A stretch of DNA of 64,000 nucleotides from Microcoleus sp. (GTDB lineage Bacteria > Cyanobacteriota > Cyanobacteriia > Cyanobacteriales > Microcoleaceae). The translations under genes and the position numbers were made by a program. The stretch's first letter is position 1. Every line of letters starts with the position of its first letter. Shown here piece by piece: positions 4,463 to 13,053 of this stretch. The notes under the pieces are model-generated. The model saw only the letters and a list, made by a program, of their open reading frames with translations, was not told the DNA's origin and searched no databases. The stretch is taken from the NCBI GenBank assembly GCA_042408215.1, contig JAYFMW010000030.1:576001-640000 (forward strand), given 5' to 3'.

Positions 4463-4530
4463 CATTCCCCTCAACTTCAGAAACTCCAAAAACCGAAGAC
4501 TTGGATAAAAAAGACTAGATGTGTTACGGA

Positions 4531-5000
4531 TGGGGTTCAGAAACCGGGGTTTTTTCCGAAATACTTCGTTGTCACCCGCAGACTTGGTGAAACACATTCG
4601 GCTTCGCTCAGTGCTTTGTCGGAGTGCGTGGGGTTCAGAAACCGGGTTTTTTCCGAGATACTTCGTTGTTACCCACAGACTTGGTAAAAAACCCGGTTTC
4701 TTGTCGGAGTGTAAGTCCAGAAACCGGGTTTTTTCCGAAATACTTCGTTGTCACCCACAGACTTGGTAAAAAACCCGGTTTCTTGTCGGAGTGCGTGGGG
4801 TTCAGAAACCGGGTTTTTTCCGAAATACTTCGTTGTCACCCACAGACTTGGTAAAAAACCCGGTTTCTTGTCGGAGTGCGTGGGGTTCAGAAACCGGGTT
4901 TTTTCCGAGATACTTCGTTGTTACCCACAGACTTGGTAAAAAACCCGGTTTCTTGTCGGAGTGCGTGGGGTTCAGAAACCGGGTTTTTTCCGAAATACTT
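4531..5000. repeat. Tandem array of about 84-bp REP-like units
   Basis: Repeated inverted pair AGAAACCGGGTTTTT...AAAAACCCGGTTTCT, 5-6 near-identical units. Confidence 0.9.
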
Positions 5001-5029
5001 AGGATAAACCCGCCCCACCCCACCTTAAT

Positions 5030-6439
5030 TCACCGTACCAAAAAAGCCGCACACTCCACATGAGAAGTCTGAGGAAAGAAATCAGCCGGCTGTACCCGCA
5101 CTAATTTATAATCCCCATTTTCACACAAGATTTTGAGGTCACGAGCCAAAGTAGCCGGCTTACAACTAACATAAACAATCCGATTCGGTTGTATTTCCTT
5201 AATAGTTTCCAAAACCGCGCGATCGCAACCTTTACGCGGCGGATCTAACAACAGAATATCCGGCTTCACCCCCAACTGCGGCAGCAAATCTTCCACAGTT
5301 CCAACATGAAATGTCACATTTGTCAAGTCATTTAACTCAGCATTTAACTCCGCTTGGGCGATCGCCTCCCGTTGCACTTCCAAACCTATTGCTATTTGCA
5401 CTTGTTTCGCCAGCGGCAAAGTAAAAGTCCCAATCCCGCAATAAGCATCCACCAAAACCTCATTTCCCTGCAAATTCAATTCAGATGCGATCGCCTGCAA
5501 CAAACCCTCAGCCGCCTCTGTATTCACCTGAAAAAAAGTATCCGCCCTTAACTGAAAATCCAAACCAGCAAACTCTTCTCGCAGATAAGCACGACCGGCA
5601 ATGCAGCGAGTTTCTGCACCAAAAATTACATTGGTTTTCGCAGAATTGATATTCAAACAAACACCCGCAAGTTTAGGATAGCTCTTTAACCAATCAGATG
5701 CTTGCGTTTCCAATCCCGGCAAATCTCCAGTCCTAGCTATTAAAGTTAGCAGCATCTCCCCCGTGCGTCGTCCGATTCGCAAGGATAAATGACGCAATTC
5801 TCCAGTATGTTGCTTTTCATCGTACACTGGCCATTTCATCCAGTGTATGTCTTCTTTGATTTCTTTTAATAAAGGATCGAGGCGCGGATCTTGCACCGGG
5901 CACTGATTCAAATTAACTAATTTGTGAGTGCTTTTTTGATAGTAACCAGCTTGGATTTTACCAGCCGCCGATCTTGCTAAAGGATAGGTGGCTTTGTTCC
6001 GGTATCCCAAGAATTGGGGGAAATTATCTATTTTCCCCGCTAAGATTTCATCCACTCGCAAATCGCTAAAGCCACCAATTCGTTCTAAGGCTTGAATTAC
6101 TTGATTTTGCTTGGCTTTAAGCTGATAGTCATAATTTACGTGCTGCCACTGACAGCCGCCGCACTTGTCGGCGACAATACAGTTGGGTCTGATGCGGTGT
6201 TCCGATGCTTCGAGAAGTGTCTCCAGCTTGGCTGTAGCATAGGTGGATTTGACTTGTACGAGGCGGACGAGAACTCGATCGCCCGGAACCGTATCGGGTA
6301 CAAACACCACCAAGGAGTCAAAACGACCAACTCCGTCGCCTGTGTCTGCTAAGTCGGTAATCTCTATTTCAATCAGTTGACCTTGCTGGCAAGGGTTTGC
6401 TGGTTTCGGGTTGAGGATGGGGGAATTTGATTTGGTCAC
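5030..6439 (-). CDS. rlmD: 23S rRNA (uracil1939-C5)-methyltransferase
   Basis: TRAM domain, CxxxxxCGGC Fe-S motif, FFQVN, DAYCGIG, LDPPRKG, YVSCKP, FPQTSHVE. Confidence 0.95.
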   Translation of the reverse strand: MTKSNSPILNPKPANPCQQGQLIEIEITDLADTGDGVGRFDSLVVFVPDTVPGDRVLVRLVQVKSTYATAKLETLLEASEHRIRPNCIVADKCGGCQWQHVNYDYQLKAKQNQVIQALERIGGFSDLRVDEILAGKIDNFPQFLGYRNKATYPLARSAAGKIQAGYYQKSTHKLVNLNQCPVQDPRLDPLLKEIKEDIHWMKWPVYDEKQHTGELRHLSLRIGRRTGEMLLTLIARTGDLPGLETQASDWLKSYPKLAGVCLNINSAKTNVIFGAETRCIAGRAYLREEFAGLDFQLRADTFFQVNTEAAEGLLQAIASELNLQGNEVLVDAYCGIGTFTLPLAKQVQIAIGLEVQREAIAQAELNAELNDLTNVTFHVGTVEDLLPQLGVKPDILLLDPPRKGCDRAVLETIKEIQPNRIVYVSCKPATLARDLKILCENGDYKLVRVQPADFFPQTSHVECAAFLVR

Positions 6440-6465: not shown

Positions 6466-6742
6466 TTGACACTCCCCGTCCTTTCCTGAGCGGGGATTCT
6501 TGGTTCAGCGAGACCACTTAGACTAGATACCTGGCAGCGTCTAACAAGCGAGGTGGGACTCTCCCCAAGCATTAATTTGGGTATGCCCTACCCTATTCGC
6601 ATTACTGCGGAGGGTGGCAACGAGACGAGGATTCATTGCCATAATCATGGTAAAATCCTCAGATATTGAACCGCAGAATCACAATCTAGGTCTAGATCGG
6701 AAACTTTTCATCCCACAAGTGGGGCGGGGCGTATTCCTCACT
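6466..6742 (-). mobile_element. Non-autonomous IS200/IS605 mini-element (tnpB 3' remnant plus right end)
   Basis: On the minus strand: TTAT, left-end hairpin ending GGGATGAAA, remnant GHTQINAWGE, right end GAATCCCCGCTCAGGAAAGGACGGGGAGTGTCAA. Confidence 0.7.
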
Positions 6743-6877
6743 ATAAAACGCCGTAGAGGTAAACAAATGTGAGTACCTTGAAGGAAGTTCTAGATATCCT
6801 TAACAGGATAGTGGAACCCAAACCATACCGCTTGCGGTTGGTGTGGGAGCGTCACACAGGTTGATTACCTTTCCTGT

Positions 6878-7140
6878 ATAGCTGGTAAAAGTATAGTCAT
6901 CTATTACAGTGCCGTGGGAGGCGTTCAGTCCCTCCCCTTTCGCTTTCACTTCGAGCGGATTAACCCTTCTAAAGCTGAACTACGCAGCTCTCTATCAAGA
7001 GTGCTAAACGCATTTGGGATTGCTTTTCTCAAAATATTGTAAGACCCGTTAACATCGGCGTTAATCAATCGACCCTTCTGACTATATGATACTACCATTG
7101 TCTATTGATGCTTACAATCTTAATGAAGTTTTACAATACT
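6878..7140 (-). mobile_element. Internally deleted tnpB element (MITE-like), paralogous to 50561..50833
   Basis: Encodes GRLINADVNGSYNILRKAIPNAF (RuvC-III end of TnpB); both termini shared with the 50.6-kb copy. Confidence 0.7.
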
Positions 7141-7177
7141 CAATATTATCACAAAATTGGGCGGAGCGTAGCGGAGG

Positions 7178-7449
7178 GTTAAAACCCCGTCCTTTTAGGA
7201 CGGCTTTTGCCATTGTTAAGTAATGTAACACATCTATCTCAACAAATGAATATGGTAGAATCAGTACATCAGACAAGATTTAAAAACCTACCCCCGGACT
7301 GGGGGAAAGTCTACGCCCAAAACATTCACAGAGGAGACATGACTACGCACTTACGTGCAAACGTGGTCAGCCTGGGAACTAAGCGCCATAGGGATATTAA
7401 GACCGAAAAGTCTTAAGAATCCTATGGTCTTTAGGTCTAGGAGTGTCAA
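7178..7449 (+). mobile_element. Non-autonomous IS605 mini-element
   Basis: Left hairpin AAAACCCCGTCCTTTTAGGACGGCTT; right end AAGAATCCTATGGTCTTTAGGTCTAGGAGTGTCAA. Confidence 0.65.
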
Positions 7450-7741
7450 CACAAAATATTGAGATCTGCTATGGGGACGCAGACAGAACTCGTCAAAGAG
7501 TCCAAATGTCGATCGAGATTCAAACTCTCGATCGCAGTTTTTGAATTTTCCCCGCAGTACCTTGGGACACAAGGAAACTGGCTTAGTTACTAAGCATAAC
7601 GCTTGCGGAGATTTATCTTCTACTTCTCTTGTTGATAAATGTTAGAATTAAGGTAAATCGCTGAACCAAGAATCTCATCTTTCAGGGATGAGAATGTCAA
7701 TTAATGTTAATCTCAAATATCCTCAAATTTTTTGAATAACA

Positions 7742-8227
7742 ATGAGCGTAGTTAGCCAACTAATTCTCCAAGCCGACGATGAACTTCGCTATCCCAGTAC
7801 CGGCGAACTTCAAAGCATCAAAGATTTCTTGAAAACGGGCGAACAGCGGGTACGCATTGCTACTGCGCTTTCTGACAGTGAGAGAAAAATTGTTGATGAA
7901 GCTAGCAAAAAACTCTGGAAAAAGCGCCCTGACTTTATCTCCCCCGGAGGTAATGCTTACGGTCAACGCGAACGGGCTTTGTGTCTGCGCGACTACGGCT
8001 GGTATTTGCGCCTGATTACCTATGGTATCTTGGCGGGTGACAAGGAGCCGATCGAAAGTATTGGTTTGATTGGCGTTCGGGAAATGTACAATTCTCTGGG
8101 CGTTCCTGTTCCTGGAATGGTGGAAGCTATCCGCTGTTTGAAGGAAGCTTCTTTGGCTTTGCTCAATCAGGATGATGCGAAGGAAGCTGCTCCTTATTTT
8201 GATTATATCGCTCAGGCCATGTCCTAA
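7742..8227 (+). CDS. apcD: Allophycocyanin-B alpha subunit
   Basis: [19 protein letters not shown] start, [16 protein letters not shown], 161 aa. Confidence 0.95.
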
Positions 8228-8343: not shown

Positions 8344-8727
8344 TTAGGAAGCGCAAGTTTTCAAAGTTTCCCAAATTTCCAGAGTGTCTTGGCGTTGAAT
8401 GCACATTTGTCGCAAAAAGTCAAGGGTTTTTTGGCAATATTGTTTTTTGAATTTGCGGCTGTCCTGTTGAATGGATGTGGCGAGTTGCGAGAGTTCCGAG
8501 AGGTTGGGGCAATTTTGGATCTGGTGGGCGATCGCATTTCGCCATTCTTCCAGCCTGCGGTACGAGATAAATTGTCCGCCTCGATCGCGCCGATGCACAA
8601 ACACCACATTAGCCCAAGATTCCACTCGCTTAATTAGATTTTGGGGGATTTTGAGCATTTGGGCGATCGACCTCACGGTGATGCGGAGCTTTTTCGAGGG
8701 TTGGATGCGACGAAATAGTGGTGTCAT
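8344..8727 (-). CDS. Conserved hypothetical 127-aa protein, copy 1 of 3
   Basis: RVESWANVVFVHRRDRGGQFISYR; intact frame kept in all three paralogs. Confidence 0.8.
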   Translation of the reverse strand: MTPLFRRIQPSKKLRITVRSIAQMLKIPQNLIKRVESWANVVFVHRRDRGGQFISYRRLEEWRNAIAHQIQNCPNLSELSQLATSIQQDSRKFKKQYCQKTLDFLRQMCIQRQDTLEIWETLKTCAS

Positions 8728-8845
8728 GGCTGCTGGTCGAGCGTTGATGCTAACATTGTAACAAAAATAATGAAAGTTGCCAACTTAAAAATCGAAACTA
8801 GAATCAGGCATGGTAACTTAGCTGTATGCAGATAGGGGATGACTA

Positions 8846-9226
8846 ATGGTTGTAGCAGAAGCTAAACGAGAAAAAGAATACTTAAGACGAAGATTTACTG
8901 ATACCGGGCTGCGGCGGTTGGGTAAATTGCTGCGATCGTGGCGGGAAGCTAGGGGCTGGAGCGTTCACGAATTGAGCGAACAGACCAAGCAGCATGAGGC
9001 TCAATTTTACATTCTGGGGGGAGAGCCTTTGCCGAAACTTTTGGGGGTCAGCATTGCAGGGATTTCGAGAATCGAAAATGGCTATTACAACAAGCCAGCA
9101 CCGGATCTTTTGTGGCTGTTTCTCGATGTTCTCGAACCAGTGCACCCAGTAGAGCAGCGCTTGCTTACTTTGGAAGACTTACTGTTGATCGGAACAGAAT
9201 TTTGGAACCCAAACGTTGAGGCCTAG
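8846..9226 (+). CDS. XRE-family HTH regulator, cassette 1
   Basis: LGKLLRSWREARGWSVHEL...GVSIAGISRIENG. Confidence 0.85.
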   Translation: MVVAEAKREKEYLRRRFTDTGLRRLGKLLRSWREARGWSVHELSEQTKQHEAQFYILGGEPLPKLLGVSIAGISRIENGYYNKPAPDLLWLFLDVLEPVHPVEQRLLTLEDLLLIGTEFWNPNVEA

Positions 9227-9268
9227 GAGTGTCAAATATTGGTCAACAGGAAAGGCGCTAATTCCTGT

Positions 9269-9652
9269 TTAAGATGCCACACTGTTCAAAGTTTCCCAAC
9301 TTTCGAGAGTGTCTTGGCGTTGAATGCACATTTGTCGCAAAAAGTCAAGGGTTTTTTGGCAATATTGTTTTTTGAATTTGCGGCTGTCCTGTTGAATCGA
9401 TGTGGCGAGTTGCGAGAGTTCCGAGAGGTTGGGGGAAGTTTGGATCTGGTGGGCGATCGCATTTTGCCATTCTTCCAGCCTGCGGTACGAGATAAATTGT
9501 CCGCCTCGATCGCGCCGATGCACAAACACCACATTAGCCCAAGATTCCACTCGCTTAATTAGATTTTGGGGGATTTTCAGGAGTCGGGCGATCGACCTCA
9601 CGGTGATGCGGAGCTTTTTCGATGGTTGAATCCGGCGAAATAGTGGTGTCAT
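9269..9652 (-). CDS. Conserved hypothetical 127-aa protein, copy 2
   Basis: Near-identical to 8344..8727. Confidence 0.8.
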   Translation of the reverse strand: MTPLFRRIQPSKKLRITVRSIARLLKIPQNLIKRVESWANVVFVHRRDRGGQFISYRRLEEWQNAIAHQIQTSPNLSELSQLATSIQQDSRKFKKQYCQKTLDFLRQMCIQRQDTLESWETLNSVAS

Positions 9653-9840
9653 GGCTGTATACTTTGGGTTGAAGACAGAAGTTTGTGTGTTTCTGAATTA
9701 GATTTTACGACATATCAGACTCTTATTGCACTTGTGCAAGGAATTTATTTAAATAAAACTATATTTAAACTCGGATGTCGATCGTGCAATCCTCAATCGT
9801 TGGTACTGTCCTAGTTTGAGAGTTAAGGTAGGTGGGAAAA

Positions 9841-10242
9841 ATGTCAAGACTCTCTAACAAAGTTGTGGTAAACAAAGAGCAGGAATTGCGTCCAGTTCGC
9901 TTCACTGAAACCGGACGGATGCGTTTGGGCAAAATTTTGAAAGTCGCAAGACAGGAAACAGGCTGGTCTGTTAGCGAAACGGAATTTAAGACGAAAGCAT
10001 ACGAAGAAGCACTGTTTACAGCTACCAATCAACCCATACCTAGAGATATCGGTATTAGTGCTGCTACAGTTAACCGTTACGAGCGCGGGAAGTTGGATAA
10101 TCTAGATTGGCGATCGCTCAGTTTGTTATGCTTTGTACTTAAGCCGATCGACCCGGTGACAGGAGAAGCCCTCGAACCGACAAATGCGCTTTACATCGCT
10201 TGCGAACATCCGCCTTATAATGATGCGAAGCTCTATGAGTAG
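9841..10242 (+). CDS. XRE-family HTH regulator, cassette 2
   Basis: LGKILKVARQETGWSVSE...GISAATVNRYERG; alternative GTG start at 9832. Confidence 0.85.
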   Translation: MSRLSNKVVVNKEQELRPVRFTETGRMRLGKILKVARQETGWSVSETEFKTKAYEEALFTATNQPIPRDIGISAATVNRYERGKLDNLDWRSLSLLCFVLKPIDPVTGEALEPTNALYIACEHPPYNDAKLYE

Positions 10243-10357
10243 TTGATTTGCCATAGGTTAGCTTTTGCTCGCTTTGCAGGAATTGCTGTCGATCGGAACT
10301 GAGTTTTGGGGTCGAAACGACAAGCTACCGATCGCAGGAAAGGCCCCTAATTCCTGT

Positions 10358-10741
10358 TTAAGATGCCACACTGTTCAAAGTTTCCCAACTTTCCAGAGTG
10401 TCTTGGCGTTGAATGCACATTTGTCGCAAAAAGTCAAGGGTTTTTTGGCAATATTGTTTTTTGAATTTGCGGCTGTCCTGTTGAATCGATGTGGCGAGTT
10501 GGCAGATTTCCGAGAGGTTGGGGGAAGTTTGGATCTGGTGGGCGATCGCATTTTGCCATTCTTCCAGCCTGCGGTACGAGATAAATTGTCCGCCTCGATC
10601 GCGCCGATGCACAAACACCACATTAGCCCAAGATTCCACCCGCTGAATTAGATTTTGGGGAATTTTCAGGAGTCGGGCGATCGACCTCACGGTGATGCGG
10701 AGCTTTTTCGATGGTTGAATCCGGCGAAATAGAGGTGTCAT
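10358..10741 (-). CDS. Conserved hypothetical 127-aa protein, copy 3
   Basis: Near-identical to copy 2. Confidence 0.8.
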   Translation of the reverse strand: MTPLFRRIQPSKKLRITVRSIARLLKIPQNLIQRVESWANVVFVHRRDRGGQFISYRRLEEWQNAIAHQIQTSPNLSEICQLATSIQQDSRKFKKQYCQKTLDFLRQMCIQRQDTLESWETLNSVAS

Positions 10742-10926
10742 GGCTGAGTCACTCCTGAACTTGGGTGAGTTAGTTGGTGTTCGTGCTTTGTTCTTACTAG
10801 ATCATATCATTCTACACGAATGAAAGTAAGTTGCAGTAATGTTTCTAAATGTGTAATGCTAAAACCCTGTCTGCTGCCAGCAAGGCAAAAGTACAGCTAG
10901 CTTAAGACTTAAATTGGGTTTGTAAA

Positions 10927-11328
10927 ATGTCGGGATTTCTTGACTTTAAGGCTGTCGTCGAGCAGGAAAAACTACGCCCTGTGCGATTCACGGATACGGG
11001 ACGTGGTAGATTGGGTAAACTTCTGAACGCAGCTAGAGGGATTCGTGGCTGGTCAATCATTGAAACAGAAATGGTCACAAAAGAATACGAAGCCGCTCTA
11101 TTTCGGACCGCAGGAGATCCTGTACCAAAAGATGTCGGTATTAGTAATGCTACTGTTAGTCGCTACGAACGCGGGAAGCTAGAAAGTTTGGATTGGCGAT
11201 CGCTCAGTTTGTTATGCTTTGTACTTAAGCCGATCGACCCGGTGACAGGAGAAGCCCTCGAACCGACAAATGCGCTTTACATCGCTTGCGAACATCCGCC
11301 TTATAATGACGCGAAGCTCTATGAGTAG
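10927..11328 (+). CDS. XRE-family HTH regulator, cassette 3
   Basis: LGKLLNAARGIRGWSIIE...GISNATVSRYERG; C-terminal ~45 aa identical to cassette 2. Confidence 0.85.
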   Translation: MSGFLDFKAVVEQEKLRPVRFTDTGRGRLGKLLNAARGIRGWSIIETEMVTKEYEAALFRTAGDPVPKDVGISNATVSRYERGKLESLDWRSLSLLCFVLKPIDPVTGEALEPTNALYIACEHPPYNDAKLYE

Positions 11329-11378
11329 TTGATTTTACTGGACAAAAATAAACCATGTCATTGCGACGCACTGCGAAT

Positions 11379-12442
11379 AATGACATGGTTATGTTTATTT
11401 GTGTCGGACTACTTATTTAGTTGGATTTGGAGTTTTTAACCGCAGAGGGCGCAGAGGGCGCAGAGGAGGAGAAGTGAGAGATTAGTCATTCTGATACTAG
11501 CGGATTTGATATTACTTATTGCCCTTTTTCTTGGCCAGCTTTGCTTTGGCTTGCTGCCAAATTTCTTCTAGTTCTTCTACTGGATAATCGGATAACGGCC
11601 GATCGCACTTTTCTTCAACTAACCTAAACCGCTCCACAAACCGCTGATTTGTCCCCTGTAAACCTGACGATGGATCTAAACCGTACCACCGAGCTAGTTG
11701 AATTAACACAAACATAATATCTCCTAATCACTAACAATGACATGGTTACTTTTATTTGTGTCGGACTACTTATTTAGTTGGATTTGGAGTTTTTAACCGC
11801 AGAGGGCGCAGAGGGCGCAGAGGAGGAGAAGTGAGAGATTAGTCATTCTGATACTAGCGGATTTGATATTACTTATTGCCCTTTTTCTTGGCCAGCTTTG
11901 CTTTGGCTTGCTGCCAAATTTCTTCTAGTTCTTCTACTGGATAATCGGATAACGGCCGATCTCACTTTTCTTCAACTAAGCTAAACCGCTCCACAAACCG
12001 CTGATTTGTCCCCTGTAAACCTGACGATGGATCTAAACCGTACCACCGAGCTAGTTGAATTAACGCAAACATAATATCTCCTAATCACTAACAATGACAT
12101 GGTTACTTTTATTTGTGTCGGACTACTTATTTAGTTGGATTTGGAGTTTTTAACCGCAGAGGGCGCAGAGGGCGCAGAGGAGGAGAAGTGAGAGATTAGT
12201 CATTCTGATACTAGCGGATTTGATATTACTTATTGCCCTTTTTCTTGGCCAGCTTTGCTTTGGCTTGCTGCCAAATTTCTTCTAGTTCTTCTACTGGATA
12301 ATCGGATAACGGCCGATCGCACTTTTCTTCAACTAACCTAAACCGCTCCACAAACCGCTGATTTGTCCCCTGTAAAGCTGACGACGCATCTAAACCATAC
12401 CACCGAGCTAGTTGAATTAACACAAACATAATATCTCCTAAT
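11379..12442. repeat. 357-bp tandem triplication containing the 3' end of mazG
   Basis: GTGTCGGACTAC at 11401, 11758 and 12115; two extra mazG 3' fragments at about 11512..11728 and 11869..12085. Confidence 0.95.
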
Positions 12443-13053
12443 TCTGACTGCTGCGCTTCTTTGTCTTCATGTTTGAGAGCCTGTTCAAATTCTGCCATTT
12501 CTTCGTGAAATTTATCCCAAACACCGTCTACTCTGTCCCAATCAAAACTCGCTTCTGCCGCTTTTTGAGAGATTTTCATCCCGGCGGCGATCGGAGGTAA
12601 TGTGCTAGCATAACGGCTCATTTTTGATGCTACAGTTGGCTTTTGCGAGGTTTCGCCTTTTTCTGCTGCTTTGATTTTTTCCCAGTTTTCGTTGACTTCA
12701 TCTACGCTTTTGATCTCGACATCGCCGAAGACGTGGGGATGTCGCCGAATTAGTTTTTCTGTAATCCCATTGGCGATTTCTGCGAGGGTGAATTGACTGG
12801 TTTCGCTGGCAATTTGAGCTTGGAGCACTACTTGTAAGAGTAAGTCTCCTAATTCTTCGGCGATCGCATCTTTTTCCCCCCGACGAATCGCATCGGCGAC
12901 TTCATAAGCTTCTTCGATAATATGGGGAATTAGGGTTTGGGGCGTTTGGGCTAAATCCCAAGGACATCCGCCCTCGGGATCTCGCAATTTTGCTACAACT
13001 TCGATTAATTTTTCCACTGCTATGAGCGATCGACTTTCAGAATTAGACATCAT
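12226..13053 (-). CDS. mazG: Nucleoside triphosphate pyrophosphohydrolase
   Basis: GCPWDLAQT, EEAYEV, EELGDLLLQV, RRHPHVF. Confidence 0.95.
   Translation of the reverse strand: MMSNSESRSLIAVEKLIEVVAKLRDPEGGCPWDLAQTPQTLIPHIIEEAYEVADAIRRGEKDAIAEELGDLLLQVVLQAQIASETSQFTLAEIANGITEKLIRRHPHVFGDVEIKSVDEVNENWEKIKAAEKGETSQKPTVASKMSRYASTLPPIAAGMKISQKAAEASFDWDRVDGVWDKFHEEMAEFEQALKHEDKEAQQSELGDIMFVLIQLARWYGLDASSALQGTNQRFVERFRLVEEKCDRPLSDYPVEELEEIWQQAKAKLAKKKGNK

Follow-up and report, generated by a model that had tools for sequence, protein, structure and literature searches.

An apcD–mazG locus of Microcoleus with three alternative repressor–operator types, a candidate heteroimmunity switch on the chromosome

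The immunity switches of temperate phages, phage-inducible chromosomal islands (PICIs) and integrative and conjugative elements (ICEs), among them cI-cro of lambda, stl-str of SaPI and immR-xis of ICEBs1, are the classical setting of heteroimmunity and zygotic induction. Here we describe a chromosomal locus of related design in a 64,000-nt stretch of the Microcoleus sp. assembly GCA_042408215.1 (contig JAYFMW010000030.1, positions 576,001 to 640,000; this whole stretch is the window, and its own numbering is used). Between an apcD-like gene and mazG, three head-to-head cassettes each pair a gene for a 127-aa protein, A, with a gene for a repressor of the XRE family, X1, X2 or X3. The locus resembles the phage, PICI and ICE switches in pairing an XRE with a small divergent gene under overlapping promoters (an overlap observed in type 1 alone), in its specificity groups defined by recognition helix and operator, and in the derepression predicted for a naive cell. 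Unlike them, it occupies a fixed core-chromosome site between housekeeping genes with no integrase or replication genes nearby, has no match in the phage and plasmid collections searched, has descended vertically with its host, and consists of a small, stable set of alleles with stacks of orphan repressors and several unlinked paralogous loci.

Other described systems share part of this design. Polymorphic toxin loci with orphan immunity arrays (contact-dependent inhibition (CDI), Rhs and type VI secretion system (T6SS) loci) likewise join an active unit to a variable 'immunity' stack through conserved recombination anchors, with orphans that decay; in Microcoleus, however, the putative effector is constant and the repressor–operator pair varies, and neither a delivery system nor a toxin domain is present. 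Fungal mating-type idiomorphs and het/vic allorecognition loci also have dissimilar alleles between homologous flanks, shared across species and repeated at several unlinked loci of a filamentous organism, whereas the present locus is bacterial, its alleles are promoter-plus-repressor modules, and its recognition function is putative. As we know of no cell fusion here, the types must meet by DNA transfer. CapH/CapP XRE-regulated switches and type II toxin–antitoxin pairs with XRE antitoxins are similar in having a small XRE whose loss is perhaps costly while its partner is intact, but the Microcoleus genes are divergent rather than operonic, have no PADLOC or toxin match and no protease partner, and form an allelic series at one site. 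A literature search, with most subscription papers outside its reach, found no account of such a system. In the accessible part of PMC10923798, whose supplements may list these genes, the terms 'XRE' and 'helix-turn-helix' were not found, and the accessible part of PMC12378983 has no description of an A/XRE system. The system is real and not ordinary, and it is probably undescribed.

Three repressor–operator modules opposite one gene

A preliminary description of the window had recorded three divergent pairs of an almost invariant 127-aa gene and differing XRE genes, with unrelated intergenic regions. All six open reading frames were found in this arrangement: A1, the copy in the ancestral position, with its 3' flank on the apcD side (8344..8727), A2 (9269..9652) and A3 (10358..10741) on the minus strand, facing X1 (8846..9226), X2 (9832..10242, with the ATG at 9841 as the likelier start) and X3 (10927..11328) on the plus strand. 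The helix motifs quoted for the repressors (SIAGISRIENG, SAATVNRYERG and SNATVSRYERG) are present in them. X1 matches Pfam HTH_3 (E=2e-8) and also passes the HTH_31 cut-off, X2 just passes that of HTH_26 and X3 falls just under it. X1 is ~38-46% identical to X2 and X3, which are ~72% identical to each other, the last ~130 nt of X2 being nearly identical to X3. The three spacers, of 118 nt (type 1, 8728..8845), 179 nt (type 2, 9653..9831) and 185 nt (type 3, 10742..10926), do not align to one another, as had been claimed. The near-invariance of A holds within the window (93-98% identity in DNA, 91-98% in protein), where it reflects recent copying, and not across the genus, where A is the least conserved part: A1-A3 form a single clade in the A tree (support 100/88) and are each other's closest relatives. 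A2 and A3 have a 3' flank in common, and before A3 this flank follows a decayed X1-type 3' end (10260..10319, plus strand; repeat family D8, 75%), a remnant that marks a recombination scar.

The type-1 spacer contains back-to-back sigma70-like promoters, one directed toward A (8783->8755, with an extended -10) and one toward X1 (8777->8804), and their -35 boxes overlap in a short palindrome (8774-8786). The promoter scan returned 4 sites against 4.5 expected in shuffled sequences, and it is position and conservation that carry weight. Such a consensus pair was scored in type 1 only among the three spacer types; the other two contain inverted repeats that are candidate operators, at 9726-9739 for X2 and at 10808-10822 for X3. 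The type-1 -10 motif was present in 16/16 type-1 spacers and 0/59 others, the core of the type-2 repeat in 32/42 type-2 spacers and 0/33 others, and the type-3 repeat in 17/17 type-3 spacers and 0/58 others. Overall, spacers are conserved within a type and unrelated between types (n=16, 42 and 17 for types 1, 2 and 3). The spacer goes with the adjoining XRE type, and shared sequence ends ~5 nt short of the A start.

Among copies that hold the recognition helix, it is identical in 23/23 for X1, 56/57 for X2 and 36/37 for X3. Synonymous divergence between X2 and X3 has reached saturation over the first 85 codons, and the remaining codons are intermixed, so that the two types differ in the DNA-reading N-terminal half and share the C-terminal half. 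These alignments show a putative specificity module, made up of the spacer and the N-terminal half of the XRE, that exists in three interchangeable and ancient versions. In the genome, exact copies of the type-2 and type-3 repeats occur once each and the type-1 palindrome occurs 5 times. A genome-wide XRE regulon was considered and is unsupported, the exact type-2 and type-3 repeats being found once and relaxed forms 16 and 3 times, as candidate operators only.

Sequencing runs were consulted on the triplication (runs X1, X2, X5 and X14 below are sequencing runs, not repressors). All three spacers were present at 0-6 differences in contig pieces of runs X1 and X2, two of the three DNA or unlabelled runs; the source sample may be one of the two, and the whole stretch is not covered by any single listed piece. 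In run X2 the depth of the A contig was 22.7 against 8-9 for single-copy parts (~2.7x), and the triplication therefore looks real. An assembly artefact is rejected on the basis of the contig pieces of runs X1 and X2, the depth and related metagenome contigs. Run X5 differs from the type-2 cassette (window 9640-10134) at 23/495 places, while most other pieces differ at 0-2 and the mazG piece at 12, which looks like the exchange of an X2 sub-allele but might also come from a mixture of strains. RNA run X14 yielded contigs over A1 and the type-1 spacer, from which strand and level cannot be read and which may derive from DNA.

Layouts and age of the three types

The locus was compared across 79 Microcoleus genomes (the window genome and 78 others, one genome per species). 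A or part of A was found at the apcD–mazG site in 71/78 of the others, and the named close homologues of A are from Microcoleus. The left flank apcD is kept in 69/71 related loci, the flanks in relatives being apcD-like/rlmD and mazG, that is, housekeeping genes. Six of the seven remaining genomes were read: five lack an intact A and XRE beside apcD, one of these empty sites retaining a 28-codon X2 stub, and in the sixth the contig ends at the gene. Over 72 loci (window included), X2 adjoins A in 39, X1 in 16 and X3 in 13, and four have none. The 56 complete intervals fall into 19 layouts, with one XRE in 27, several in 26 and none in 3. Cassette number and XRE allele thus turn over in an interval that is not fixed among relatives. 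The earlier view that this is not a plain tandem duplication is supported.

More than one A is present in only 4/56 complete intervals; multi-A arrays are seen in the window, L032, L183 and L184. Relatives with several repressors most often have a single A with promoterless orphan XREs behind it: the gap from one XRE to the next is below 60 nt in 38/42 intact cases, so that the downstream repressors have no spacer or promoter of their own. A yeast-like silent-cassette switch is ruled out because most orphans lack their own spacer. In 15/15 relatives with X1 in first place, X2 or X3 comes next, as would be expected if the 3' half shared by X2 and X3 serves as the right-hand recombination anchor. 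Near-identical metagenome contigs differ in number and order (A-X1-A-X3 in L183, X1-A-X3-A-X2 in L184), and the window triple therefore stands at the top of a series that is fluid. The layouts show that modules have evidently been swapped by recombination, with A/apcD as the left anchor and the shared XRE C-terminal half or mazG as the right one.

The types are old. On a tree of the flanking genes (apcD, mazG and DUF2227; 54 loci in which these genes and an XRE are all present), the type of the first XRE changes 20 times against a shuffled mean of 19.9, and on the A tree 26 times against 27.7. Distances between A copies follow flank distances (rho 0.78) and not type (0.149 vs 0.149), and XRE distances within a type also follow flank distances (rho 0.67, 0.74 and 0.63). 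Type is thus random on the flank tree while each allele tracks the flanks, and therefore each lineage would have kept all three alleles. A second family has A at another fixed site, with ilvN on one side and a dehydrogenase gene on the other. Within a single genus of that family, A is paired with X3 in two species and with an X2-like repressor in a third; another genus there has a fourth type in first place and X3 as an orphan. The X3 sequences of both families form one clade (97/99), and monophyly of the X2 and X3 of the genus was rejected (approximately unbiased test, p-AU 0.006; eight sequences per type sampled from the genus). We take these trees to show that the three types represent an ancient, trans-family polymorphism, evidently a balanced one; for X3, an old transfer between the families would also fit. 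Their stable coexistence points to an advantage of rare types. X1-type repressors were also seen in a third family (L226-L228); in two of these three 3.3-kb loci there was no match to A.

The state of A and that of the repressor facing it are coupled. The XRE opposite an intact A was broken in 0/62 cases (one is two residues short), whereas orphans were broken in 11/52 (p about 1e-4); these counts exclude an orphan truncated at the end of its contig and a locus with A split across contigs. Deletions take A and its XRE together in 3 loci, to which the 5 empty sites are added. Intact orphans have a ratio of non-synonymous to synonymous substitution (dN/dS) of 0.09-0.12.

Protein A, its relatives and the flanking genes

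A has a confident AlphaFold model (mean predicted local distance difference test, pLDDT, 96), with a small N-domain of helix and three strands followed by a three-helix bundle. The structural analysis proposed in the preliminary description thus gave a clear fold and no clear match to it. The best fold score of the N-domain is Z 4.5, with no Cro-, Xis- or AlpA-type fold among the listed matches, and an excisionase-like reading of this domain stayed unsupported; HTH_17, an excisionase/MerR-type helix-turn-helix (HTH) family, matched 2/44 A relatives at a sub-threshold E=0.03. The similarity of the bundle to T4 UvsW.1 (Z 7.2, root-mean-square deviation 4.2, 78 aligned) is within the chance scores of helical bundles, and HEPN Pfam matches of A1 were weak and far below cut-off. 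A sequence search of the PDB and a search of the ESM Atlas with A returned nothing named. One Ser-Tyr pair is the only invariant feature of A, and an enzyme is therefore not suggested. Across the genus dN/dS is 0.23 for A against ~0.08 for each XRE type; by this measure A appears to be the least constrained part of the cassette, yet under purifying selection. A does not vary with XRE type, and it is dispensable.

A profile search of the window genome identified six sites with 10 A-family genes in all. Between one and three XREs lie opposite nine of these genes, and opposite the remaining one are two small genes that are not XREs. Small 64-aa genes stand as tandem pairs in the usual XRE place opposite an A-family gene at G000:C17 232926-233760 and in L153, L168 and L173; they have no Pfam family and look ribbon-helix-helix-like by eye. 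At paralogous loci 2 and 3 (best 30 matches of 79 and of 69 genomes), the same pattern of alleles plus orphans recurs with unrelated XRE families. The first types number 18/8/3 in 29 informative loci with 12 array forms at one site, and 16/6/5/3 in 30 loci with 15 forms at the other. They change 8 and 11 times on the trees of these sites, against minima of 2 and 3, and shuffles reached values as low in 15/200 each. At the prfA site spacers are type-specific; at locus 2, where similarity is 0.49-0.74 within types vs 0.45-0.50 between them, they may be. In L101 2937-15234 (G000:C26), prfA is followed by two more copies of its 3' 126 codons, which separate cargo blocks (one with a phosphate-binding protein, another that we take to be a tubulin-like cluster) and two A-family/XRE arrays with different first types.

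In the class as a whole the A family is patchy (18/401 sampled genomes). Outside the genus, divergent XREs, up to four, were present in 18/23 non-Symploca loci with at least 700 nt upstream. Two Symploca metagenome-assembled genomes (L132-L179) have at least 10 dispersed A-family copies each, mostly without an XRE and beside short tandem repeats, which suggests mobility. In 8/53 non-genus loci (L142, L147, L158, L167, L170, L178, L228), a recurrent small gene with no Pfam family lies upstream of, and co-oriented with, the A-family gene; it is possibly a second effector.

On the left the window locus is flanked by an allophycocyanin-alpha-like gene (7742..8227, plus strand; ApcA model match below its cut-off), which we take to be apcD, and on the right by mazG (12226..13053, minus strand; TIGR00444 over cut-off). 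Three 357-nt tandem units carry the mazG 3' end (11376..12389), each holding the last 59 mazG codons and a palindromic repeat, and the third is the real gene end. Their depth in run X2 (~25 vs 8.7) agrees with repetition. The extra units number two, as do the extra A copies, with no link shown. Two further stretches (window 6500-7460 and 4521-5063) hold transposon-like remnants between rlmD and apcD, which relatives lack or have in shorter form, and short tandem repeats downstream of rlmD.

A proposed switch for incoming chromosomal DNA and its rivals

We propose that balancing selection maintains the locus as a heteroimmunity switch of the chromosome, one that separates 'self' from 'non-self' DNA, a reading that we judge about as probable as its negation, its repression, burst and effect all being predicted. 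The resident A would be locked by an XRE on the operator of its own spacer. When a cassette of another type arrives, as chromosomal DNA, in a cell of its own or a closely related species, a recipient lacking the matching repressor would undergo a burst of A, as in zygotic induction; orphan XREs would then be immunity against other types. A rare type would meet mostly naive recipients, and several types would persist. In the weakest step, the burst would either favour the incoming cassette, which takes over other chromosome copies or raises local recombination, or penalise the naive recipient. A strain with the triple would have immunity against each of the three types and would set off the burst in any recipient with a single type. 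As the genome holds one exact copy each of the candidate operators of types 2 and 3, an orphan repressor would matter only if DNA with its operator arrives, and the only known carrier of these operators is the same locus in other strains. A burst of A from an incoming cassette would therefore account for both the orphans and the stable coexistence of types. The heteroimmunity reading accommodates null alleles, empty sites, decaying orphans and repeats at unlinked loci. The genome has ComEC, and natural transformation is reported for the filamentous Phormidium lacuna (PMC7292380). More tentatively, and with less confidence than in the switch itself, we consider that these filamentous cyanobacteria may have a multi-locus allorecognition or gene-drive system for chromosomal DNA, in which about six unlinked core sites would form a compatibility barcode for gene flow through their combination of types, with orphans as acquired immunity.

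Several observations weigh against the proposed switch. The binding of each XRE to the operator in its own spacer, which would keep A off, is a prediction from family and layout, and A is a putative effector; scans of A against Pfam, PHROGs, NCBIfam and PADLOC gave no named family, and fold searches with the A model gave no clear match. Decay of orphans is frequent, although among the 11 that are broken three are 3' remnants only, and two of the loci probably share one event. In 9/71 loci A is null through the same 23-nt insertion, at codon 20 in a HIP1-like site (L079, L081, L088, L089, L091-L095), although one of these loci keeps a second intact A, and the XRE facing the null A is intact in 9/9. 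The sequence surrounding the insertion differs among the nine species; the insertion may be a very small mobile repeat that has a hot spot here, or else the null allele is spreading. In 3 more loci a transposase-like gene, presumably an IS605-type TnpB, stands in place of the XREs, the spacer and the 5' half of A. In Symploca an XRE lies within 2.5 kb of only 2/23 A-family copies. The case for polymorphism within species draws on tree randomness and a few metagenome contigs. Uptake of one particular locus is rare, and selection would therefore need to act on the cassette itself.

The preliminary description had suggested modules captured from temperate elements, or a multi-input sensor. Capture is not supported: phage and plasmid matches were not found, and A and each XRE type follow the phylogeny of the flanking genes. 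No match was found in IMG/VR to A, X1, X3 or the A-family profile, in INPHARED phages to A, or in PLSDB to A, X1 and two distant A-family proteins, although these collections sample the phages and plasmids of benthic cyanobacteria thinly; the matching cyanophage or plasmid repressors that had been envisaged thus did not appear in IMG/VR (X1, X3) or PLSDB (X1). This also bears on the idea that the XREs silence temperate phages or plasmids with matching operators and that A is a left-over early gene. The cI/cro-like layout, the low dN/dS of intact orphans, the dispensability of A and the faint excisionase/MerR-type matches in a few of its relatives would suit it. We consider it improbable: the listed XRE matches in the genus genomes all fall at the locus, apart from a single partial one on another contig, no tyrosine integrase lies closer than ~450 kb on the window contig (serine recombinases were not searched), and A is under purifying selection and inherited with its flanks. 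The sensor idea, in favour of which an XRE facing intact A is never broken, is weakened by the shared C-terminal half and by the orphans, which it leaves unexplained. In the form of a phage-triggered guard, a different phage product would inactivate each XRE and release a toxic A for abortive infection, phage diversity would balance the types, and the triple would sense three triggers. XRE-controlled defence switches are known and multi-A arrays exist, and this version is nevertheless unlikely. Promoterless orphans are the commonest multi-XRE form, and X2 and X3 share the half that would sense while differing in the half that reads DNA. PADLOC 2.0 returned nothing for A and only weak matches for X1 (E 0.005-0.017; capH E=0.017), the flanks are housekeeping genes, and a stable three-allele set across families would fit an arms race poorly. 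A and its XRE are head-to-head in all loci, that is, not co-transcribed like a type II toxin–antitoxin pair.

Two further explanations give incoming DNA no role. The three modules might be niche or developmental alleles that give A different expression, for example stochastic death or fragmentation rates or stress responses, and that are kept by varying environments. The wholly different spacers, the consensus promoter pair in type 1 only and the conservation of A (dN/dS 0.23) are in line with this; orphans would have no target, however, given single exact type-2 and type-3 candidate operators in the genome, and the multi-allelic design recurs at unrelated loci with unrelated XREs, which makes this account quite unlikely as well. 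Neutral lock-and-key drift, in which frequent recombination shuffles equivalent pairs and a local hot spot yields arrays and the triple as side effects, would agree with the tandem repeats of the mazG end nearby and of the prfA end at a paralogous locus, and with the persistence of null and deleted alleles. It seems very improbable, as three saturated alleles that track their flanks have persisted over ~70 species and two families, where drift should have lost them.

Long-lived balanced polymorphisms of mating type and het type are a eukaryotic theme. The locus described here would be a bacterial core locus with such a polymorphism, made of repressor–operator pairs and repeated at unlinked sites. 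The window strain carries all three complete cassettes in one background, which allows a direct 3x3 comparison of specificity. Microcoleus is mat-forming, and the genus dominates soil crusts and river mats. If the alternative of a drive is true, the locus would be the first chromosomal selfish drive in a polyploid bacterium. In PMC10923798, Microcoleus speciation is framed as a continuum of gene-flow barriers; if the types gate incoming DNA, they would provide a concrete mechanism for such barriers in Microcoleus.

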